64,000 nucleotides of DNA from the NCBI GenBank assembly GCA_035403965.1, contig DAONGE010000006.1, forward strand, positions 6,521 through 70,520, read 5' to 3'. Position numbers and translations under genes: made by a program. The DNA is from Candidatus Omnitrophota bacterium. GTDB lineage: Bacteria; Omnitrophota; Gorgyraeia; Tantalellales; Tantalellaceae. The notes beneath the pieces are model-generated. The model did not search any database. It saw only the letters and a list, made by a program, of their open reading frames with translations, and was not told where the DNA came from. Below are positions 6,091-32,457 of this stretch, piece by piece; position 1 is the first letter of the stretch, and every line of letters starts with the position of its first letter.

Positions 6091-7569
6091 GTGAAATATC
6101 CTAATAAGAATATTGTTCTTGTCGGATTTATGGGCACAGGTAAAACCTCGATAGGGAAACTGCTGGCAAAGAAACTTAATTTTAAATATGTCAGTACTGA
6201 CGGTCTTATTGTGGAAAAAGAAGGTCGAGAGATAAACGATATTTTTCTGCGTGATGGAGAGGCGTATTTCAGGACAATCGAGAAGAAAGTAGTAAAGGAT
6301 GTTAGCGCGAAGGACGGAGTGGTCATCGATACGGGGGGTGGCGTAGTCCTTAACGGTGAAAATATAAAAAATCTGAAACGTAAAGGCACCGTGATATGTC
6401 TCTGGTCGGATGCTGAGACTATACTTAACCGTACTAAAGGGTTCGGCCATAGGCCCCTTCTTAACTGTAAAGATCCCTTAAGAAAAATAAATAAACTATT
6501 GAAAGCCAGGCAGCCGTTCTATCGGAAAGCCGACGTGCATATAGACGCCGGGAACGGGGACCCTGACGTGGTCGCGCGGCGCATATGCGCCATCGTGAAA
6601 AATATCCGGGTGCGGGAAAAAGCCATAGCCGGAGAGAAGAGCAATATCGCCAAGTTGTTCGATAAGCTTCTGAATCACGCGATGATGCCGGTTTTCATAG
6701 CGGATAAGAATGGAACGATAAAATATCACAACCGAGCGTTTCTGGACGCGGTCGGGGAACGGATGAACGGCAAAAATTGGATAACGGAGATAGTGAAAAG
6801 GTCGCATCACGCGAAAGCATATGAGATACTAGATAGTATCAGTGAGAGCGGATCTCTGCACGATATAAGGTTTTTTGAGCTTTCGCGCAGAAAAGACCGT
6901 TGTATCTCAAAATGGATATCATGCGGGATCGTTACTCCGGGTGGCAGGAAGGGAATGATCTTTGTCGCGGATGAGCATAAACAGGGAGAACACGATTATT
7001 TGTCTCTTGGGGCCTCGGCTAGTGAAATAGTGATGACCAACATGATATTTTCCGGTGAAAGCCGTACGGATCTTTTTACGGCCAGTCATTCTTCCGGTGT
7101 GACAAAATATGCTCTGTCTCTCGGCAAACGGATGGGGCTTGATAAAAATGAGCTGAGGGTTCTCACTATGGCGGCTCTTTTACATGATATCGGGAAACTT
7201 GCAGTTGACGAGAAAATAACGTTTAAACGCGGCGCTCTGAACGTGAATGAATACAGACAGATGAAAAATCATCCGCTTTTTGGTGTGGAACTTTTGAGAC
7301 CGTTTGTGTATCTTTGGGAAGCTTTGCCGATCATTTTATTTCATCATGAGAGCTTCGATGGAACGGGTTATCCGTACGGGATAAAGGGCACAGATATCCC
7401 GCTTGGCGCGAGGATACTGAGTGTGGCCGATGTATATGAGGCGTTAACTGCCGATCGTCCGTACCGGAGCGCGTTCTCGAAAAAAGAAGCCCTAAAGATA
7501 ATGAAAAAAGGGCGCGGGGAGAAACTGGATCCCGCTATAACGAATGAATTTATTAAGATGATCAAATGA
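6091..7569 (+). CDS. aroK: Shikimate kinase fused to a PAS-like region and an HD-GYP c-di-GMP phosphodiesterase domain
   Basis: Residues 1-170 are a canonical AroK (Walker A GFMGTGKTSIG; DGGVVLNGEN). Residues ~330-492 carry the HD (LLHDIGK), HHE (FHHESFDGTG) and GYP (GYPYG) signatures of HD-GYP. The linker in between looks PAS-like. One continuous 492-aa ORF. Confidence 0.8.
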   Translation: MKYPNKNIVLVGFMGTGKTSIGKLLAKKLNFKYVSTDGLIVEKEGREINDIFLRDGEAYFRTIEKKVVKDVSAKDGVVIDTGGGVVLNGENIKNLKRKGTVICLWSDAETILNRTKGFGHRPLLNCKDPLRKINKLLKARQPFYRKADVHIDAGNGDPDVVARRICAIVKNIRVREKAIAGEKSNIAKLFDKLLNHAMMPVFIADKNGTIKYHNRAFLDAVGERMNGKNWITEIVKRSHHAKAYEILDSISESGSLHDIRFFELSRRKDRCISKWISCGIVTPGGRKGMIFVADEHKQGEHDYLSLGASASEIVMTNMIFSGESRTDLFTASHSSGVTKYALSLGKRMGLDKNELRVLTMAALLHDIGKLAVDEKITFKRGALNVNEYRQMKNHPLFGVELLRPFVYLWEALPIILFHHESFDGTGYPYGIKGTDIPLGARILSVADVYEALTADRPYRSAFSKKEALKIMKKGRGEKLDPAITNEFIKMIK

Positions 7570-11742: not shown

Positions 11743-13020
11743 ATGAGATTTTTATTTGACGTATTTTTTATGATGTTTTCGGTGGTATATCTGCCGTATC
11801 TTTTTCTCGGCAGACGTATGCACAAGGATTTCAAACAGCGTTTTGGGTATTTGCCGGCGGAAGCGACGAGTTTTAAAAAGCCCGTGTGGATACACGCGGT
11901 AAGCGTCGGGGAGGCACAAGTGGCGCTGGAACTGGCGGCAAAACTCAAAAAAGAAATGAAGGATGTTCCCGTGGTGGTTTCGGTCACAACAAAGACCGGA
12001 TACGCACTTCTGAGCCAATGGGCGGGGAAAACGGTGGACGCTGTTTTTTACTCGCCGATAGATATCTCATGGATAGTCGCCCGTGTTATACGAAAAATAG
12101 ATCCACGTGTTTATGTCATGATCGAGACCGAGATATGGCCGAATATTCTTACGGCTCTGAGAAGAAATAAGGTCCCGATAGTGCTCGCCAACGGGCGTAT
12201 TTCGGATTTTTCGTTCAATAATTACCGCACGATAAGGTTTCTTATAAAAGGTGTTTTTGAAAACATTAATGTTGCATGTATGCAGTCGCAGAAAGACGTG
12301 GAAAGGATAATTGCGCTGGGTATTCCGGAGAAAAGATGTTTTGTGACCGGTAATATGAAATTTGATATGGCCGGAGGCGGAATGGGCGAAGGGATCTCGA
12401 AAAAAGACATAGGATTTGAGGACGGCGACGAAGTGCTGGTAGCCGGAAGCACGCACAGCCCCGAAGAAAAATATCTGACCGATATTTACCGGGAGATTCG
12501 TGTCGGCAACAAAAAAGTAAAATTTATCGTCGCTCCGCGGCACATAGAAAGGGCCGATTCCGTTCAGGAATATATAGAGGGCACAGGGCTTGTCGTTCAG
12601 CGGTTTTCCGAGATCTATCGTAATCCCGGACTTAAGCGTCGAGACCTGGATGTCGTGATCGTTGATACGATAGGGCATCTTAAAAATATTTATAACGCCG
12701 CTACCGTTATCTTTATAGGCAAAAGCCTTGTCGAGAACGGAGGCGGACAGAATCCGATAGAGGCGGCCAGGTGGGGGAAACCCGTTGTTTTCGGGAAATA
12801 TATGTCTAATTTCAGAGAGATCGCTGATCTTTTTCTTGAAAACGGCGCCGCGCTGGAAGTGTCCGACAAAGAAAACCTGGCGATTGTACTGGACCGGTTG
12901 TTCGAGAACGGGGAGGAACGTTCCCGTTTAGGGACAAACGCGTTGAAGGTCATAGAAAGGAATACGGGCGCGACAGCACGGACTGCGGAAAAGATAAAAT
13001 ATATTGTTGTATACGCGTGA
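11743..13020 (+). CDS. waaA: 3-deoxy-D-manno-octulosonic acid (Kdo) transferase
   Basis: Membrane anchor followed by the KdtA motif KPVWIHAVSVGEAQVALELAAKL. 425 aa GT30 fold. Confidence 0.85.
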   Translation: MRFLFDVFFMMFSVVYLPYLFLGRRMHKDFKQRFGYLPAEATSFKKPVWIHAVSVGEAQVALELAAKLKKEMKDVPVVVSVTTKTGYALLSQWAGKTVDAVFYSPIDISWIVARVIRKIDPRVYVMIETEIWPNILTALRRNKVPIVLANGRISDFSFNNYRTIRFLIKGVFENINVACMQSQKDVERIIALGIPEKRCFVTGNMKFDMAGGGMGEGISKKDIGFEDGDEVLVAGSTHSPEEKYLTDIYREIRVGNKKVKFIVAPRHIERADSVQEYIEGTGLVVQRFSEIYRNPGLKRRDLDVVIVDTIGHLKNIYNAATVIFIGKSLVENGGGQNPIEAARWGKPVVFGKYMSNFREIADLFLENGAALEVSDKENLAIVLDRLFENGEERSRLGTNALKVIERNTGATARTAEKIKYIVVYA

Positions 13021-13029
13021 CGGATATTT

Positions 13030-14085
13030 ATGGCGAGATATAGTATGAAAGAATATTTTTTTCTTGTTATGACAGACCGTAAAACCGGGCCTGGTGACCG
13101 CGTTGCGGCTGGGGTCCTTTATTTCGTATCGATTCTTTATGCCATGGTGATGCGGTTCAGAGGCCGGATGTACAAAAGAGGTTTTTTTAAGGTAAGGAAG
13201 GCTGCGGTTCCGGTCATAAGTGTGGGGAATATTACACTTGGTGGTACCGGGAAAACGCCCTTTGTGGCCTTTCTCGCCGATAGATTGACGGCATTAGGCA
13301 TGAAACCGGCCGTTCTTACCAGAGGGTACGGCGACGATGAACACCGTATGCTGAGGGATGATATCCCCGATGTCCCGGTAGTAGTCGGCAGTAACCGTGT
13401 ACGAAACGCGGAAAAAGCCGTTCGTCTTGGGGCGAATATACTGATAATGGACGATGGCTTTCAACACAGACGTCTCGGGCGTGATCTTGATATCGTTCTT
13501 TTGGACAGTGCAAAGCCGTTCGGGAACGGATATGTATTTCCGCGGGGTACATTGCGTGAACCGCAGGACGCGATCCGCCGCGCGGATGTTGTTGTTCTTT
13601 CAAAATGCGATAAAATCCCGGAAGGTACGGATCTGAAAAAGATAGCCGGAAATTTGGATATCCGCCAGGGCGTGCCGGTCATCGCGATAAAATATAAAGC
13701 AAAATTTTTATCCGATGTAACGGGCGCGGTTTATCCGGCGGAAAACTTCAAAGGTAAAAAGGTGTGCATTGTTTCCGGGATAGCCGATCCTGAATATTTC
13801 GGATCGATGGTCGGGAAAACGGGTGCGATCATAGAGTCCGAAAGATATTTTATGGACCATCATGCGTATACACAGAACGATGTAAACGAGATATTGAGGA
13901 TGTGTGTGCGTAATGAGGCCGACGCCGTGATAGTAACGGCTAAAGATTATGTAAAACTCAGGAAGTTGGATCTTTCCGAGTTGGAAAGTAAATTGTTCGT
14001 TCTTAAAATCTCGGTAGACATAACACAGGGAGAGGAAGTATTCAGTGCTGGACTTAATAGCCTCATACATGCTTCGCGGTCTTAG
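13030..14085 (+). CDS. lpxK: Tetraacyldisaccharide 4'-kinase
   Basis: P-loop in the LpxK context (ISVGNITLGGTGKTPFVAFLADRL). 351 aa. Confidence 0.85.
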   Translation: MARYSMKEYFFLVMTDRKTGPGDRVAAGVLYFVSILYAMVMRFRGRMYKRGFFKVRKAAVPVISVGNITLGGTGKTPFVAFLADRLTALGMKPAVLTRGYGDDEHRMLRDDIPDVPVVVGSNRVRNAEKAVRLGANILIMDDGFQHRRLGRDLDIVLLDSAKPFGNGYVFPRGTLREPQDAIRRADVVVLSKCDKIPEGTDLKKIAGNLDIRQGVPVIAIKYKAKFLSDVTGAVYPAENFKGKKVCIVSGIADPEYFGSMVGKTGAIIESERYFMDHHAYTQNDVNEILRMCVRNEADAVIVTAKDYVKLRKLDLSELESKLFVLKISVDITQGEEVFSAGLNSLIHASRS

Positions 14086-15979
14086 TATATTGTTCTGTTA
14101 TATACCGATCCGCGCTGTTTTGGCGTATGGAAGGTTTTGCGGAAAGATCGCGTATTTGTTAAGTGGTAAGCGGTGCTGCGTGACGTATTCTAATCTTAAG
14201 GCTGCTTTTCACGGCGAAAAGTCCCCGGAGGAGATATCCGAGATAGCGAAAAAGGCGTATCTTTCGGTCGGAGAGGTCTTCGCGGAGCTTGTGGCAGTTC
14301 CACGTGTAGACGCACGGTATGTGGAGAAATATATAAAGATCAATAATTTTGAGCGCATACAGAAAGCAGCGTCGAACCCGAAAGGGATGATACTGGTCTC
14401 GGCGCATTTCGGGAACTGGGAGCTTAGCACAGTTGCGAGTGCGATCAAAGGATATCCGTTGTATATGCTCGCGCGTGATCAGAAAATGAAAAGGCTTAAC
14501 GAGCTACTGAACCTTCTTCGCGAAACCAAAGGCAATATGGTCGTTCGTAAAGGCGTGGATATAAAAAACATTTTCAGGCTCCTGAGGTCGGGGAAAAGCC
14601 TGGGTTTATTGGCCGATCAGAACGCGGGGGCTTCGGGTGAGTTAGTAGACTTTTTCGGCAGGCCCGCTTCAACTGCTACGGGGCCTTACCGTTTCGCCCA
14701 AAAGACGGGCGCGGTAGTGTTGCCGGCCTTTATACATCGCAAGAACGGTCCGTATCAGGAACTGTATCTGGAAGAGATAATGGAGATAAAAGAGGACGAA
14801 AGCATTATCCCATATATGGAACGGTACAACGCGCTTTTGGAAAAACACATAAGACAGTCGCCCTCTCAGTGGTTCTGGATGCATAAACGCTGGAAAAAGA
14901 CATCTGTTAAAAAAGTTATGGTCCTGGATGACGGGAAGAAAGGGCATTTAAAAGAATCGTTAGCGATACTTAAACAGATAGAGATATATCGCAAAGATGA
15001 AGGCTTCCAAGACAAGGACCTTGAGGTTCAGATAGTGAGTATCCGTTTTCGCGATAAGTTTAGGAAAGCCGTATTTAACGCTTTTTGCCCGCTGCTTACG
15101 TGGCGATTGGGGATGCATCGTAAAATGCTAGCCTGGGCGATGACGGCGGAAACGTACAAAGACGCTATCAATAGATACGCCGATGTCATCGTAAGCTGTG
15201 GTTCGGGGCTTTATGGCGTGAGTACCGCGCTAAAAATAGAGAATTATGCCAAGAATATAGCCGTACTGGATCCCGGAAAGATCAATTACGGGAAATTTAA
15301 CGTGATCGTGATGCCGAGGCATGACGTGAAGTCTTCTAAGGTCGCGGACAATATAGTTGTGACGGAACTCGCGCCTAACCTTATTGTGCCGTCAGAATTA
15401 TTGTCTTTACGCGTGTCGCTTGCGGGGAAAATGGTCTCCGGTAAGGTTAACGTGGGCGTTCTTATCGGCGGGGACAACGGTTTTTACGCGTTCACAGAAG
15501 ATATGGTTAGAAATATTATGGGTGGTATTGTGGATTTTTGCAGAAAAAAAGACGGTAAAATATTCGCGACGACATCACGTCGTACTCCGGAAAGTGCGGA
15601 AAATGCCGCGGCGGAGATGCTTTTAAAGGATAGTACCTGCGGTTTTTTCGTTTACGGTAAGAATGATACCGATGATAAAACCGTGGATAAGATATTGGCG
15701 CTTTCGGATATAGTGGTAGTATCGGGTGAAAGTATTTCCATGGTATCCGAAGCGGTTTCGTCCGGTAAACCGGTTGTCGTGTTCATGCCGGTCAAGAAGC
15801 ATGCAAAAACCAATAAGTACGAGGCGTACGTGAAACGGCTCGAAAATGAAGGTTATCTGACGCTTTTCTCCGGCGGCGACCTGACTGTGGTGCTGGATCG
15901 GGTGTCTGCTTCCGACGTGAAACGTAAGGCGATAGAGGATAACCGCAGAATATACGAAAAGATACATAAACTATTTTAG
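14045..15979 (+). CDS. lpxL: Lipid A late acyltransferase (LpxL/HtrB family) fused to a C-terminal ELM1/DUF1022-like domain
   Basis: The N-terminal ~290 aa carry LpxL-family motifs (HFGNWELS; LLADQNAG; FWMHKRWK). The C-terminal ~340 aa begin VMVLDDGKKGHLKESLAIL and end VVVSGESISMVSEAVSSGKPVVVF, which I recognise as the ELM1/DUF1022 pattern. Family assignment is from memory, not a search. The likely start is the internal Met at 14069. Confidence 0.7.
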   Translation: MLDLIASYMLRGLSILFCYIPIRAVLAYGRFCGKIAYLLSGKRCCVTYSNLKAAFHGEKSPEEISEIAKKAYLSVGEVFAELVAVPRVDARYVEKYIKINNFERIQKAASNPKGMILVSAHFGNWELSTVASAIKGYPLYMLARDQKMKRLNELLNLLRETKGNMVVRKGVDIKNIFRLLRSGKSLGLLADQNAGASGELVDFFGRPASTATGPYRFAQKTGAVVLPAFIHRKNGPYQELYLEEIMEIKEDESIIPYMERYNALLEKHIRQSPSQWFWMHKRWKKTSVKKVMVLDDGKKGHLKESLAILKQIEIYRKDEGFQDKDLEVQIVSIRFRDKFRKAVFNAFCPLLTWRLGMHRKMLAWAMTAETYKDAINRYADVIVSCGSGLYGVSTALKIENYAKNIAVLDPGKINYGKFNVIVMPRHDVKSSKVADNIVVTELAPNLIVPSELLSLRVSLAGKMVSGKVNVGVLIGGDNGFYAFTEDMVRNIMGGIVDFCRKKDGKIFATTSRRTPESAENAAAEMLLKDSTCGFFVYGKNDTDDKTVDKILALSDIVVVSGESISMVSEAVSSGKPVVVFMPVKKHAKTNKYEAYVKRLENEGYLTLFSGGDLTVVLDRVSASDVKRKAIEDNRRIYEKIHKLF

Positions 15980-15992
15980 ACAGGATGACGAT

Positions 15993-18074
15993 ATGAACGT
16001 ATTGCAGCTTTTACCTAAACTTGAACTTGGCGGCGTAGAACGGGGCACTATAGAAATGTCGCGTTACCTTACAATGAAAGGGCATAAAGCCGTGGTCGTC
16101 TCCGGTGGCGGCAGACTGGAAAAAAGCCTTACAGCGGCCGGTGCCAAGCATTATATGCTGCCTGTAGGCAAAAAGAACCCTCTTATCATGGTGTACTGTT
16201 ATTTCAAAATAAGGGCGATAATTAAAAAAGAAAATATTCATCTTGTGCACGGAAGAAGCCGGGTGCCTGCGCTTATCGGCTATTTCGCCGCGCGTGCCGA
16301 GAAAAGAACATTTATAACCACGGCGCACGGACATTATAAAAAACATCTTATCAGTAAAGTGATGGGGTGGGGGAAGATAGTGATCGTTGCCAGTAACTTT
16401 ATGGCACAGTACATGAAAGAGAATTTCGGGGTGCTTCCGGGGAAGATAGTAGTGATACCGAGAGGAGTGGATCTTGAAAGGTTTTCTTTTATACGTCCGG
16501 CCAAACGTGCGGATAAAGTGTTCCGCGTCGGAATGATAGCCAGGTTTACTCCGCTCAAGGGACACATGGATTTTCTGAAGGCGGTCGCGTATGTTTCCAG
16601 AAAGATGCCGAATCTGGAAGTTGTTCTGATGGGCGATAGGAATGAGGCCCGTCCGGATTATATTAAAAAAATGGATCTGGCGATAAAACGATATCTGATA
16701 GATAAAATTGTTAGATTTGTCGGTCCGGGTGAAAGCGTGCCAGAAGTATTACGCGGGCTGGATGTTCTTGTGTCAGCCTCACGCGAACAGGAGGCTTTTG
16801 GACGATCGATTATAGAGGCGCAGGCGCGAGGGGTTCCGGTAGTGGCGACACGTGTCGGCGGAGTTGTGGAAACAGTTGAGGACGGGGTCACGGGACTGTT
16901 GTGCGAAGCGTCGGATCCTTCGGATATGGCGAACAAAATAATGAAATACGCTTCCAGTCTGGAGTTTAGGCAGGAAATAGCCGAGAAAGCCCGGAAGAAT
17001 GTTGAAGAGCTTTATTCCGTGGAACGGTGTATGAGCCTTGAACTTGAGGCGTATCGCCGTGCATGTGAAATAAAGAAGATTCTGGTGTTTAAGATCAGTT
17101 CACTGGGAGACGTGATACTTTCAGTCCCGTCTTTACGTGCGATAAGGAGCCGTTTTGCAGACGCTTCAATAAAGGTACTGGTGGACGTTAAATTCAGGAA
17201 AGTCCTCGAGGGCTGTCCTTATGTCGACGAGATCATTACCTGCGATTTCAATGAAAGGGACGCCGGGGCCGGATTTTTTAAACTGGCAGATCGCTTGCGA
17301 GCCGAGGATTTTGATTTTTCGGTGGATCTTCAAAATAGCACGAAAAGCCATCTGCTCGCGTTTTTAGGTATGATACCGGAAAGGTTCGGATATAATAACG
17401 GCAAAATGAGTTTTCTTCTGAACCATAAAGCTGTTCTTCCCAAAAAAGCCATGGGACCGGTCGATCATCAGGCACAGTTATTATCGATCCTCGGGATAAA
17501 TATGGTGGAAAAATCTCTTGAACTTTGGCCCGGAGAAGAACATAAAAAATGGGCAAAGAATTTTCTTCAAGTGAACTGGCTGAACGAGGGACAGAAACTG
17601 GTAGGTATAAGTCTTTCGGCCAGTGCCAGATGGGGAACTAAAAATTGGGGGATGTCGCAGATACAGTCGCTTGCGGATATGCTGGGGAAAGACGATATAC
17701 GTGTGGTTTTTATCGGTACTCCGAGCGATATCCCTGCCGCTGAAAAACTTACAAAGAAGAACAATCTTAAAGCTATTAACGCCGTGGGGAAAACAAATAT
17801 ATCACAGCTTATCGCGCTTATTGCGGAATGTTCCGTTGTTGTGAGCGGCGATTCGTCGCCTATGCATATCGCCGCCGGTGTCGGGGTGCCGTTCGTAGGT
17901 CTTTTCGGTCCGACCGATCCTGACAGACACGCTCCGCCTGCTGTGAAATGCAGGATAATCGGGAAAAAGGCGAAATGTTCGCCATGTTACAAAGGAGAAT
18001 GCAATAACGGCCATAGATGTATGTCGGGTATCCGGCCACAGGAAGTTTATAACGCGGTGAAAGATCTGATGTGA
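15993..18074 (+). CDS. Bidomain glycosyltransferase: N-terminal GT4 (GT-B, WaaG-like) fused to a C-terminal GT9 heptosyltransferase
   Basis: N-terminus has GGVERGTIEMSRYL and an EX7E-like region (GRSIIEAQARGVPVV) typical of GT4. From ~aa 350 comes KKILVFKISSLGDVILSVPSLRAIRSRF (the GT9 N-terminus), and the protein ends with a Cys-rich GT9 C-terminus. Confidence 0.75.
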   Translation: MNVLQLLPKLELGGVERGTIEMSRYLTMKGHKAVVVSGGGRLEKSLTAAGAKHYMLPVGKKNPLIMVYCYFKIRAIIKKENIHLVHGRSRVPALIGYFAARAEKRTFITTAHGHYKKHLISKVMGWGKIVIVASNFMAQYMKENFGVLPGKIVVIPRGVDLERFSFIRPAKRADKVFRVGMIARFTPLKGHMDFLKAVAYVSRKMPNLEVVLMGDRNEARPDYIKKMDLAIKRYLIDKIVRFVGPGESVPEVLRGLDVLVSASREQEAFGRSIIEAQARGVPVVATRVGGVVETVEDGVTGLLCEASDPSDMANKIMKYASSLEFRQEIAEKARKNVEELYSVERCMSLELEAYRRACEIKKILVFKISSLGDVILSVPSLRAIRSRFADASIKVLVDVKFRKVLEGCPYVDEIITCDFNERDAGAGFFKLADRLRAEDFDFSVDLQNSTKSHLLAFLGMIPERFGYNNGKMSFLLNHKAVLPKKAMGPVDHQAQLLSILGINMVEKSLELWPGEEHKKWAKNFLQVNWLNEGQKLVGISLSASARWGTKNWGMSQIQSLADMLGKDDIRVVFIGTPSDIPAAEKLTKKNNLKAINAVGKTNISQLIALIAECSVVVSGDSSPMHIAAGVGVPFVGLFGPTDPDRHAPPAVKCRIIGKKAKCSPCYKGECNNGHRCMSGIRPQEVYNAVKDLM

Positions 18075-20440: not shown

Positions 20441-21450
20441 TGGAAAAAATGATAGACAGGACAAAAATAAGATCCATTCTGCTGGTATCGCTCGCCAATC
20501 TGGGCGATATCGTGCTTACCACCCCGGTTCTGGATAAACTAATATTTGAATTCCCGGGTGCCGCGATCGACGTTATGTGCGGCCCGGCGGGGGAAGAAGT
20601 ATTTGCCAAAAATCCTCGTGTCAGAGAAGTTATTATAAATCGTAAACATCTTCCGATAGCCGAACGGATGAAGCTTACCGCGTATTTAAGACGTAAAAAA
20701 TATGATATGGCGATCGATCTAAAAAATACGGCATTGCCTTTTCTTGCCGGTGCGAGGTATAGAACCGGTATTTTTAAACCCAAGATGCCATCCCGTACTC
20801 ATAAGATGGACGAACATCTTGTTGCTCTTCAATGTTTCGGAATAAGTGGCGCAGGCGCGTCTTTTTGTGTTACAGCGTCGGCAGACGATAAAAGATTGGT
20901 TGATGCCATGCTGTCGGCCTGCAAAGGCAAAAAAGTAGCGGTGATAAGCCCCGGATCGAAAAGCCATCTAAAAAGATGGAGTGCTGAAAAATTTGCGGAG
21001 TTGTCTGACCTGTTGATAAAAGAACACGGTTGCGAGGTTTTTGTGATCGGCGACGCCGCTGACAAAGAAGTCGTGAAAAGAATGAAAACTTTTGCGCGTT
21101 ATCCTGTGCAGGATCTTTGTTGTGGCACGAATATCGGCATGGTATATGAATTGATGAGGCAGGCGGATATCGTTGTTACAAATGATAGCGCGCCGCTTCA
21201 CATAGCCAGCGCCGCGAACGCGCCGGTTGTGGCGATATTCGGTCCGTCAGACGAGAAAAAATACGGGCCGGTATCTGAGTCGTGCGCTGTCGTTGCGCCG
21301 GATCGCTCCTGCCGTCCGTGTTGTAACGCATTGTGCAAAAAAGGTCCGGCCGAAGGTTGTATCCCGGACGTGACCGTCGAGGATGTCTATAAAACGGCGA
21401 AAGAACTGTTAGGGAGAGCTTGTGGGGAAAATAACCATAAAAATAGGTGA
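20434..21450 (+). CDS. ADP-heptose:LPS heptosyltransferase (GT9), paralog 2
   Basis: [26 protein letters not shown]-terminus. [21 protein letters not shown]-terminal Cys cluster. Confidence 0.8.
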
Positions 21451-21943
21451 CATCACGCAGGAAAGCGTTGATGTAATAGTGAACGCTGCGAATGCCTCAT
21501 TGCTGGGAGGCGGCGGAGTCGATGGCGCGATACATCGTGCGGCAGGGCCTGCCGTTCTTAATGAGTGCAGAAAGTTCGGTGGGTGTAAAACCGGCGAGGC
21601 TGTTATGACCGGTGCCGGAAAACTGAAGGCAAAACGGATTGTGCATACACCTGGTCCCGTCTGGACCGGTGGAGAACACGGCGAACCGTTTCTTCTTGAT
21701 TGCTGTTACAAGAATAGTTTTCTTTTGGCCCGCAAAGCGGGATTCAAGACTATAGCGTTTCCCGCGATAAGTACCGGTGTATACGGCTATCCTGTGGACA
21801 AAGCTGCTAAAATAGCTATTTCCGTCGGGATGAAACAAATTGAACATTTTGACGAGATAATATATGTCTGTTTTTCCGAGGATGTTCTAGAGGGGTATCA
21901 AAAGGTATATGCGAAATTATCTACCCCGAGGAAAAAGAAATGA
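21422..21943 (+). CDS. Macro domain protein (MacroD/YmdB-like ADP-ribose-binding / O-acetyl-ADP-ribose deacetylase family)
   Basis: GTG start 5 nt after an AGGGAGAG RBS. Motifs [28 protein letters not shown] and [14 protein letters not shown] are diagnostic of Macro domains. 173 aa. Overlaps the upstream GT9 by 29 nt and shares an ATGA junction with the downstream GT9. Confidence 0.8.
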
Positions 21944-30287: not shown

Positions 30288-30689
30288 ATGGCGAAGAGCA
30301 AGGATTATGACGGTTTGCAGGAAAAGGTGCGGGGACTTAAACTTCCTGAGATAGAAACATGGGGAAATAAATATACCGATAAGGAATATGTTGTCAGATT
30401 CGATACTCCGGAATTCACATGCGTATGTCCGAAGACCGGATTGCCTGATTTTGCGCACATTTTCATAGAATATTCTCCGGCGCGGTCGTGTGTTGAACTT
30501 AAATCTTTCAAAGAATATCTGATGGCCTATCGTGATATCGGGATATTCCACGAACATGTGGTGAACCGCATACTTGAGGATCTTGTAAAAAGTGTTTCAC
30601 CCAGGTGGATGACGGTGAGGGGTGTTTTCAATACCCGTGGCGGGATAACCACGACAGTTGAGTCAGGTTACAAAAAGAACGGTAAATGA
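30288..30689 (+). CDS. queF: NADPH-dependent 7-cyano-7-deazaguanine reductase (unimodular type)
   Basis: Thioimide cysteine and QueF motif context (FTCVCPKTGLPDFAHIFIEY). 133 aa. Confidence 0.85.
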   Translation: MAKSKDYDGLQEKVRGLKLPEIETWGNKYTDKEYVVRFDTPEFTCVCPKTGLPDFAHIFIEYSPARSCVELKSFKEYLMAYRDIGIFHEHVVNRILEDLVKSVSPRWMTVRGVFNTRGGITTTVESGYKKNGK

Positions 30690-31582
30690 AGATAAAAACA
30701 CGGCGTTATCACATATATTATTGGTTCAGGGTATTGTTCTTTATCATGAGATTCGTGCCGCTTAAAGCGGCGTTGCGGGTGGCAGAGATTGGCGGGAAGC
30801 TGGCATTCAGGCTTCTCCCAAAATACAGAAATATAGCCGTCGGAAATTTAGACGACGTATTCGGGAAAAACGTCGCGAATGAGGAAATAACCCGGAATGT
30901 ATTCGTCAACCTGGCGAAAAACGGGGCGGAATGGATCAAACTTATGACTTCGCCGAATTCTTTGGTAAAGAGGCTCGTTACGGAGGCCGAAGGATTCGAT
31001 CGTCTTGACGCTGTACTTGCAAAAGGGAAAGGGGTTCTTGTTATTACGGGGCATTTTGGGAACTGGGAGTTGTTGACGGCATATGTTCGTTCCCGAGGAT
31101 ATAAGGGAGCCGTGATAGGGAAAAGAATATATTTCCACAAATACAACGAGTTTATAATGAAAATGCGGTACAAAACCGGCGATCGGGTTATTTATCGTGA
31201 TGAATCGCCCAAAAAAATATTAAAGGTCCTGAGGGATGGAGAGGTTATAGGCATCCTCGCGGATCAGGATATGGATTCGCTGGATGGAGTGTTTGTTGAT
31301 TTTTTTGGAAAACCGGCTTATACGGCGGTTGCGCCGGTGAAACTAAGCGCGGCCAGCGGAGCCAACTTGCTTCCGGCTTTTTTGATAAGAAAAGCGGACG
31401 GGACACATAGATTGATATTTGACGAGCCGATCGATGTGCCTTGCGGCAAAATATCGGATGACGACGTAAAAAAATATACGCAAATGTGGACAAATGCTCT
31501 TGAGAAATATGTAAGGGAATATCCTGATCACTGGACCTGGATACACAGACGGTGGAAAACAAAAGAAGGTGTGACGAAATGA
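30686..31582 (+). CDS. Lipid A biosynthesis acyltransferase, second LpxL/LpxM-family paralog
   Basis: Membrane anchor plus VITGHFGNWELL, ILADQD and WTWIHRRWK, the motifs shared with the N-terminal domain of the 14045-15979 gene. Confidence 0.75.
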   Translation: MKIKTRRYHIYYWFRVLFFIMRFVPLKAALRVAEIGGKLAFRLLPKYRNIAVGNLDDVFGKNVANEEITRNVFVNLAKNGAEWIKLMTSPNSLVKRLVTEAEGFDRLDAVLAKGKGVLVITGHFGNWELLTAYVRSRGYKGAVIGKRIYFHKYNEFIMKMRYKTGDRVIYRDESPKKILKVLRDGEVIGILADQDMDSLDGVFVDFFGKPAYTAVAPVKLSAASGANLLPAFLIRKADGTHRLIFDEPIDVPCGKISDDDVKKYTQMWTNALEKYVREYPDHWTWIHRRWKTKEGVTK

Positions 31583-32457
31583 AAAATATTTTCATGTTAA
31601 TTCTCACTATCGCGCTTGTGATAGTCGGGTATTTAGGTTATCAGCGTTTTATGAACACATCGTCGCAGGACAAAAATAAAAAATCTTCCGCGCCTCAGGT
31701 TGAACAGAAGATGTATACGTTCTCGATTGATGGTAAGACCGCTAAGGGCGTGAAACAGTGGCATCTTGAGGGGCAGGCCGCTGAGATGGTGGATGACGGG
31801 ATACATCTTGAAGACCTTAATGCCGTCGCTTTCAACGAGCAGGTCACGGTGAACCTCGAGTCCGATAAAGGGATATACAATAAAGATAAAGGCGAGGTCG
31901 AACTGATCGGAAATGTAAAAGTAACTACCGAGGACGGCGGGGTATTGACTACCGATCACGCTAAATGGTCGCAGGTCACGAAAGAAATAGAAACCGATGC
32001 TATTGTAAATATAAAACGCGAGAATATGATAGCCACGGGTAAGGGCGCAAAGGCTAACTCCGATGAAAAACGCGCTACGCTTCTTTCGGATGTGAACGTC
32101 AAACTCGAGCCGCAGACCGATATTCACTGCGATGGGGAACTTCTGATTCTTTTTGGGGAAAATAAAGCTACGTTCAATAAGAACGTGAAAGTAAAAGATA
32201 AAGACGGTGAGCTTTTCGCTGACACGCTTACGGTCTTCATAGATCCGGCATCGAAAAAAATAGCGCAGGTCGTGGCCGAAGGGAATGTGAAACTTGTAAG
32301 AGGAAAAAGCTATACGTTATGCGGTAAAGCGACGTATACCGACGGAACAAGAAGCGTACAGTTCGTGGGTAAACCCAGAATAGTGATCGCCCCGGAAGAA
32401 ATTCAGCAGGCCGGTCTTATGCCTGGCGCCGAGGCGTTAAAAGAAGGATCAAAGTAG
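31579..32457 (+). CDS. LPS transport periplasmic bridge protein, LptC/LptA-like (OstA_N fold), single gene
   Basis: ATGA overlap with the upstream stop. N-terminal TM anchor (IFMLILTIALVIVGY). Then a long beta-jellyroll-like sequence with repeated GNVK...D motifs (LIGNVKVTT; EGNVKLVRGK). Lies directly upstream of lptB. 293 aa, which is longer than LptC alone. Confidence 0.6.
   Translation: MKNIFMLILTIALVIVGYLGYQRFMNTSSQDKNKKSSAPQVEQKMYTFSIDGKTAKGVKQWHLEGQAAEMVDDGIHLEDLNAVAFNEQVTVNLESDKGIYNKDKGEVELIGNVKVTTEDGGVLTTDHAKWSQVTKEIETDAIVNIKRENMIATGKGAKANSDEKRATLLSDVNVKLEPQTDIHCDGELLILFGENKATFNKNVKVKDKDGELFADTLTVFIDPASKKIAQVVAEGNVKLVRGKSYTLCGKATYTDGTRSVQFVGKPRIVIAPEEIQQAGLMPGAEALKEGSK

Follow-up and report, generated by a model that had tools for sequence, protein, structure and literature searches.

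Why is a late acyltransferase of lipid A synthesis covalently joined to a domain of the ELM1/GtrOC1 family, and which reaction would the second domain catalyze? The question is raised by one gene (14045..15979, + strand) in a stretch of 64,000 nucleotides (nt) from Candidatus Omnitrophota bacterium (assembly GCA_035403965.1, contig DAONGE010000006.1, positions 6,521 to 70,520). This whole stretch is called the window here, and positions are those of the window unless another locus is named. The gene encodes 644 amino acids (aa) in a single open reading frame (ORF), in which matches to PF03279 and PF06258 mark an LpxL-type late acyltransferase followed by an ELM1/GtrOC1/KdoT-type domain with a predicted GT-B fold. 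On balance, its product is probably a bifunctional inner-membrane enzyme of lipopolysaccharide (LPS) synthesis, which would carry out late acylation and an extra sugar transfer, probably of 3-deoxy-D-manno-oct-2-ulosonic acid (Kdo), on a Kdo-lipid A intermediate. An earlier note on this DNA had already recognized both halves from the letters and had taken the family of the second half to be without an assigned biochemical function. The assignment of the halves stands. The statement on function is outdated, since work on KdoT from 2014 to 2025 has given the family one (PMC4172580, PMC10936431, PMC12856342).

Two domains on one polypeptide

The 644-codon ORF begins with GTG and contains zero internal stops. 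The Shine-Dalgarno-like sequence GGGAGAGGAAG is positioned about 6 nt 5' of the GTG, and this ribosome-binding site and the start (14028..14047, +) lie inside the 3' end of lpxK, with which the fused ORF overlaps by 41 nt. The N-terminus MLDLIAS is common to the window protein and its homologs in the alignment. The two domains meet at HKRWKKTSVKKVMVLDD (14882..14932, +), a junction conserved among homologs with a very short linker of about 8 residues, where one frame only is open and the remaining two are stop-rich. The uninterrupted ORF leaves no place for the frameshift or stop near ~14950 that the earlier note had feared to have missed.

The N-terminal half (aa 16-285; 14090..14899, +) is an LpxL/HtrB-family acyltransferase domain, matched by PF03279 (Lip_A_acyltrans) with an expectation value (E) of 2.6e-48 and 165.2 bits against a Pfam cut-off of 22.3. 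Residue invariance was counted in an alignment of 26 fused homologs with 41-62% identity to the window protein. Both H121 and E126 of the HX4E dyad in HFGNWE (aa 121-126; 14405..14422, +) are invariant there, and the pattern HxG[NSDA]WE was found in 65 of 70 fused loci from the wider set described below. The dyad would be the catalytic one, judging from the title of structure 5KNK, an LpxM with 'catalytic residue substitution (E127A)'. The motif LADQN (aa 189-193; 14609..14623, +) follows, with D191 and Q192 invariant. The hydrophobic helix at about aa 4-22 (14054..14110, +) is a putative membrane anchor by analogy with the LpxL/LpxM family; in the hydropathy profile only, aa 4-22 is the most hydrophobic 19-residue window of the protein (Kyte-Doolittle 1.66), and the full-length model has helices at aa 2-19 and aa 22-39. 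The best Foldseek matches of this half are LpxM structures of Acinetobacter baumannii (5KNK, E 8e-13; 5KN7, E 3e-12; TM-score 0.65 on the target), and PatA is matched as well. The half therefore resembles LpxL and LpxM (HtrB and MsbB) in PF03279, the HX4E dyad, the LpxM-like predicted fold and the predicted N-terminal hydrophobic helix, and the genome holds a second paralog as E. coli holds LpxL plus LpxM. It differs from them in that the window protein bears a C-terminal glycosyltransferase domain of 350 aa.

The C-terminal half (aa ~290-644; 14912..15976, +) is matched by PF06258 (Mito_fiss_Elm1) over aa 300-612, with an E of 2.5e-42 and 145.5 bits against a cut-off of 27. The motifs quoted for it in the earlier note were found at aa 293-309 (VLDDGKKGH...SLAIL) and from about aa 559 (VSGESISMVSEAVSSGKPV). 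Within DDGKKGH (14927..14947, +), D296 and H301 are invariant in the homologs, as are H426 and D427 of PRHD (15314..15325, +) and G475, G476 and N478 of a GGDN loop. TSRRT, which contains the SRRT motif (aa 510-514; 15572..15586, +), is invariant in 26/26 homologs; of the 80 loci, 77 have SRRT unchanged and three have conservative variants. A conserved loop and a helix of the C-terminal Rossmann half, the donor-binding one, are formed by GESISMVSEA (15725..15754, +), whose S563, S565, M566, S568, E569 and A570 are invariant. Since the key motifs are retained, both fused halves look functional.

The earlier note had expected a GT-B-like fold for this half, and structure prediction agrees. Modelled alone, the domain has a predicted local distance difference test score (pLDDT) of 92 and a predicted TM-score (pTM) of 0.90, with two Rossmann-like halves of alternating strand-helix topology. 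Foldseek returned 92 matches at E<=1e-3, and the best 50 of the 92 are almost all GT-B glycosyltransferases and UDP-N-acetylglucosamine (UDP-GlcNAc) 2-epimerases, at 10-14% identity to the GT-B matches, which is a generic fold likeness. A sequence search of the PDB with the domain gave no match at E<=1, with no solved member of the family. The AlphaFold2 model of the full chain (pLDDT 89.1, pTM 0.84) suggests a defined arrangement of the two domains, and its C-terminal half likewise has GT-B enzymes as Foldseek matches.

Spread of the fusion and a change of partner

The architecture is conserved across the phylum. With the window protein as query, at least 120 clusters at 90% identity were obtained, all listed with PF03279 and PF06258 and, where named, all from Omnitrophota; a second query, taken from the high-GC lineage that is most basal, gave at least another 120 with the same architecture, making at least 240 distinct 90%-identity clusters. 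A HMMER search with the C-terminal domain found 2278 cluster representatives (50% identity, E<=1e-3). Among the best 149 of the 2278, 92 proteins are at least 600 aa long; 86 of these 92 have HxG[NSD]WE near aa 120, and all 92 have S[RK]R[TS] near aa 515. The GESISMVSEA pattern was also used as a query for GTDB species representatives and matched 572 genomes, of which the best 80 loci were taken as the loci set. All 80 are from metagenome-assembled genomes (MAGs) of Omnitrophota or from MAGs labelled 'uncultured Planctomycetia' or unclassified. They comprise 70 LpxL-ELM1 fusions, 6 LpxK-ELM1 fusions, 3 loci cut by a contig end and 1 with an in-frame stop, and the order topA-xerC-waaA-lpxK-[LpxL-ELM1]-[GT4-GT9]-GT4-GT9n is almost invariant among them. 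The in-frame stop (locus L008, 7125-9086) lies inside the ELM1 domain, past DDGKxGH and away from the junction, and probably means that the locus is a pseudogene or was missequenced. In another locus (L054), waaA and lpxK are each two adjacent ORFs by BLAST labels, probably through frameshifts in that MAG. The LpxL-ELM1 fusion was not found beyond Omnitrophota: named matches are all Omnitrophota, unclassified bacterium or 'uncultured Planctomycetia' MAGs, and the unnamed metagenome proteins among the matches come without taxonomic placement.

In six loci (L019, L023, L035, L039, L042 and L048), the ELM1 domain is joined to LpxK in a single ORF of ~715 aa. In L023 (6927-9062), Pfam gives PF02606 at 7e-77 and PF06258 at 3e-49; a CBS-domain gene and a Na+/H+ exchanger gene separate waaA from the fusion in that locus. 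In a neighbour-joining tree of the ELM1 domains, constructed without bootstrap, those of the six loci form one clade nested inside the LpxL-ELM1 radiation, so the LpxK fusion is derived. Most plausibly it arose when the LpxL module was lost, because lpxK lies directly upstream. LpxK acts one step before WaaA and LpxL acts after Kdo addition, and both are N-terminally membrane-anchored. The exchange of one partner for the other suggests that selection has favoured tethering and co-localisation where the Raetz pathway adds Kdo, and an interchangeable partner argues against a specific catalytic interplay between LpxL and ELM1.

Beyond Omnitrophota, the PF06258 members found are stand-alone or differently extended only. 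A stand-alone 328-aa ELM1/GtrOC1 gene is located in a glycosyltransferase cluster on plasmid p2 of Pararhizobium qamdonense (L081, 3835-6765), two genes from a second kdsB, which encodes CMP-Kdo synthetase, with a single GT92 gene between them; this proximity is consistent with the use of CMP-Kdo by a distant family member. On plasmid pPNP1 of Pseudomonas sp. JS425 (L082, 4300-6642), a 780-aa 'ELM1/GtrOC1 family' protein carries the ELM1 domain at aa 441-723, after 440 residues without a Pfam match, and has SPRT instead of SRRT. Next to its gene are those for LptG, a DAGK-like kinase and an LpxO-like Asp/Asn beta-hydroxylase; the plasmid is of the IncP group and bears a class 1 integron. The copies of Tistrella and Methylobacterium have unrelated neighbourhoods. 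The earlier note had asked whether stand-alone members lie beside lpx genes elsewhere, and such a context thus appears for Pararhizobium (kdsB) and Pseudomonas (lptG, LpxO-like gene) and does not for the other two. S-x-R-[TS] is kept in all of these members. When proteobacterial members served as the profile, the search yielded proteins of Methylobacterium, Sinorhizobium and Ensifer only, and A. baumannii KdoT was not recovered.

The reaction of the ELM1/GtrOC1 half

The A. baumannii protein GtrOC1 was placed in Mito_fiss_Elm1 and proposed to form the first linkage from inner to outer core (Kenyon and Hall, 2014, PMC4172580; see also PMC10327509). Deletion of its gene A1S_2903 produced a Kdo2-lipid A chemotype (VanOtterloo et al., mBio 2024, PMC10936431), and gtrOC1 clusters with lpt genes in a CRISPR interference (CRISPRi) chemical-genomics study (PMC11975115). 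The purified A1S_2903 protein was named KdoT; it takes Kdo from CMP-Kdo and passes it to Kdo2-lipid IVA, to which it adds a third Kdo (VanOtterloo, Voss and Trent, JBC December 2025, PMC12856342). KdoT does not accept lipid IVA and works about two-fold better on tetra-acylated Kdo2-lipid IVA than on hexa-acylated Kdo2-lipid A, and a Rickettsia homolog complements the kdoT deletion (PMC12856342). SRRT is invariant in KdoT homologs, where the positive charge of R180 is needed and the proposed contact of R180 is the carboxylate of Kdo in CMP-Kdo (PMC12856342). The split pathway of Kdo transfer by WaaA and a KdoT-type enzyme has so far been known from Proteobacteria only. A literature search on 'DUF1022', the family name used in the earlier note, found no papers.

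The window domain shares with KdoT the PF06258 match, the predicted GT-B fold, SRRT, the D-x4-H and HD motifs in the same order and a lipid A/core gene context. By spacing, D296/H301 may correspond to D8/H13 of KdoT; by motif order, H426/D427 probably correspond to H109/D110; and R513 is the probable equivalent of R180. The acceptor preferred by KdoT, Kdo2-lipid IVA, is also the substrate of LpxL, which fits a fusion of the two, and a GT4 gene is next in the window as the GT4 enzyme GnaT comes after KdoT in the Acinetobacter pathway. There are also differences. KdoT is a stand-alone protein of Proteobacteria, whereas the window domain is the C-terminal half of an LpxL fusion (in the subclade, an LpxK fusion) of Omnitrophota. 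By residue numbering, the window domain seems ~30 residues longer than KdoT from the N-terminal motif to the HD motif, and its donor sugar and linkage are predicted only. WaaA (KdtA, GT30) is likewise a GT-B enzyme of the inner membrane, with CMP-Kdo as donor and lipid IVA-derived acceptors. The window domain differs in lying outside GT30: its signature PF04413 (Glycos_transf_N) has no match in the domain, and WaaA is not among the best 50 of the 92 Foldseek matches. Moreover, waaA is a gene of its own two genes upstream, and KdoT-type enzymes are unable to initiate on lipid IVA (PMC12856342).

From these parallels, we propose a course of events for the fused enzyme and infer its donor sugar, acceptor position, reaction sequence and membrane topology. 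The N-terminal helix would probably anchor the protein at the cytoplasmic membrane face. WaaA would put the first Kdo residue or residues on lipid IVA, which LpxK produces. The LpxL-type domain would then acylate the Kdo-bearing lipid IVA intermediate with a secondary chain, probably through His121/Glu126, and the ELM1/GtrOC1/KdoT-type domain would act as a glycosyltransferase on the same intermediate, with an extra Kdo from CMP-Kdo as the most probable transfer by analogy with KdoT and with Arg513 of SRRT positioning the donor carboxylate. As the acceptor preferred by KdoT is the LpxL substrate, the fusion would join two substrate-sharing enzymes on one membrane-tethered chain. The earlier note had held that the fusion ties the orphan domain to Kdo2-lipid A maturation. 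This agrees with the KdoT experiments, and the link itself was already known, so the fusion corroborates and extends it.

Several points weigh against this assignment. All 17 of 17 NCBIfam matches of the N-terminal domain are under the curated cut-offs (best NF006270, 154 against 248 bits). With the domain under every equivalog cut-off, in which it differs from LpxL/LpxM, these profiles assign it no specific role as LpxL, LpxM or LpxP and no acyl chain or position. On the glycosyltransferase side, the match between the window domain and D8/H13, H109/D110 and R180 of KdoT is one of motif identity and order only. Specificity within PF06258 is not uniform, as the A. baumannii paralogs GtrOC14, 19 and 22 are encoded in the variable outer-core region (PMC4172580, PMC10327509) and are presumably transferases for other sugars. 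Distant members outside LPS contexts have S-x-R-[TS] as well, so this motif may be a mark of family membership rather than of Kdo specificity. In many bacteria, O5 of KdoI carries heptose, as in the enterobacterial core structure. KdoT puts KdoIII on this O5 (PMC12856342), and the several GT9 heptosyltransferase-like genes in the window cluster suggest that acceptor position or sugar might not be the same as for KdoT.

These points lead to the alternative that survives best, which we consider rather unlikely, namely that the architecture and the membrane logic are the same and the sugar moved by the ELM1 domain is not Kdo. It would be, for example, the first non-Kdo residue of the inner core or a sugar on lipid A itself, in each case added to the Kdo-lipid A intermediate. 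This alternative gains from the several outer-core paralogs of A. baumannii, which are unlikely Kdo transferases, from the family-wide S-x-R-[TS], from a Foldseek likeness that is generic for GT-B without a donor-specific match, and from the abundant GT9 genes, which suggest a heptose-containing core that might fill the acceptor position of KdoT. However, the sole biochemically characterised member uses CMP-Kdo and can be replaced by a distant Rickettsia homolog, the LpxL and LpxK partners flank Kdo addition and so put the domain at the Kdo node, and in one distant case a stand-alone gene is two genes away from kdsB.

A non-catalytic ELM1 domain, which would recruit or gate LPS enzymes as a scaffold or regulator and leave the LpxL half as the sole enzyme, is very improbable. 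Such a role was raised for A1S_2903 before the in vitro work by the authors of the mBio 2024 study, and eukaryotic ELM1 is described as an adaptor (PMC10936431), with plant ELM1 recruiting a dynamin-related protein. KdoT mutants with alanine at four candidate base residues were still active, yet KdoT alone catalyses Kdo transfer in vitro (PMC12856342). The invariance of the donor-side motifs TSRRT and GESISMVSEA and of the GGDN loop down to ~41% identity, near-invariant over the 80 loci, is also the pattern expected for an active site. Lastly, an artefact merging adjacent lpxL and stand-alone ELM1 genes (through erroneous sequencing or assembly, or loss of a stop) is practically ruled out and was rejected: the stop that splits the halves in L008 is off the junction in what is likely an error or pseudogene, whereas a continuous ORF with the conserved short junction, where a single frame is open, recurs in hundreds of independent sequences, namely both sets of 120 clusters and 70 of the 80 loci.

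Gene neighbourhood and meaning of the fusion

The fused gene is part of a long, co-oriented LPS cluster, which comprises topA, xerC, waaA, lpxK, the lpxL-ELM1 fusion, a GT4-GT9 fusion gene, GT4, GT9, GT9, a Macro-domain gene and GT9, continues with peroxiredoxin, a PfkB-type sugar kinase, kdsB, kdsA, kdsD, a KdsC-like phosphatase, queC and a radical S-adenosylmethionine (radical-SAM) gene, and then has lpxL2, an LptC-LptA-like fusion and lptB. The context named in the earlier note, with waaA and lpxK before the fusion and an unfused LpxL at 30686, was borne out by Pfam. The waaA gene for the primary Kdo transferase of GT30 (11743..13020, +; PF04413, 3.8e-58) is conserved upstream in the loci, lpxK for the lipid A 4'-kinase (13030..14085, +; PF02606, 3.5e-79) is directly upstream and overlapping, and the second, unfused LpxL-family paralog (30686..31582, +; PF03279, 3.1e-52) shares 29% identity with the fused N-terminal domain. 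Directly downstream, the GT4-GT9 fusion gene (15993..18074, +) encodes 693 aa with a heptosyltransferase-II-like GT9 half by Pfam and NCBIfam, and most of the 80 loci have it at the same place. Speculatively, the counterpart of its GT4 half could be Acinetobacter GnaT/LpsB, which acts right after KdoT. No gna-like UDP-GlcNAc dehydrogenase, which would parallel the Acinetobacter KdoT/GnaT pathway, was seen among the scanned ORFs of the window.

Consecutive or co-localised LPS activities on one polypeptide are also known from HldE, and the compact Omnitrophota genomes have several such fusions in this cluster, including GT4-GT9 and LptC-LptA. The latter is a 301-aa single ORF (31552-32457, +) between the second lpxL and lptB, with matches to LptC (PF06835) and to the OstA-like LptA/LptD_N family (PF03968), and looks like an LptC-LptA fusion. 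The Macro-domain gene (21422-21943, +), for an ADP-ribose-binding protein or hydrolase, is placed among the GT9 heptosyltransferase-like genes of the core cluster. Outside the LPS cluster, the window contains ordinary housekeeping genes. A 492-aa ORF (6091-7569, +) within an aromatic amino acid biosynthesis cluster combines shikimate kinase, a weak PAS match and HD_5/HD. The GC skew is positive in all 2-kb windows over 1-64000 (0.11-0.26), with essentially every real gene on the + strand, an unusually strict co-orientation.

What the ELM1/GtrOC1 domain does has largely been answered by experiment, and the fusion opens no new kind of biology. New, as far as the searchable literature goes, are the covalent architecture of LpxL-KdoT type, its phylum-wide conservation in Omnitrophota and the derived LpxK-ELM1 variant; no description of an acyltransferase paired with a glycosyltransferase at the Kdo2-lipid IVA node was found in that literature. 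The fusion gives genomic support of the Rosetta-stone type, from a distant uncultivated phylum, for the assignment of ELM1/GtrOC1 to this node. Published KdoT homologs are from Acinetobacter and Rickettsia only, and KdoT-type enzymes are far more widespread. Annotation is also affected: JGI names the protein 'KDO2-lipid IV(A) lauroyltransferase' only, and the NCBI label for the Omnitrophota fusion proteins is 'ELM1/GtrOC1 family putative glycosyltransferase' only, so each names half of a probably bifunctional enzyme.

A hint that selection acts on membrane tethering or co-localisation comes from the LpxK fusion. A wider proposal can be put forward tentatively. Split Kdo transfer by WaaA and a KdoT-type enzyme might be ancestral in Omnitrophota and wired to lipid A maturation, with late acylation and the addition of the extra Kdo or another inner-core sugar obligatorily coupled, possibly channelled on one bound molecule of Kdo2-lipid IVA, and with an ELM1 domain that needs the tether of a fused Raetz enzyme, in most lineages LpxL and in one LpxK. 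If the two steps are coupled in this manner, the fused protein would be a natural single-polypeptide model for the engagement of the lipid substrate by KdoT-type enzymes, and the coupling would constitute a checkpoint that is absent from the E. coli paradigm.

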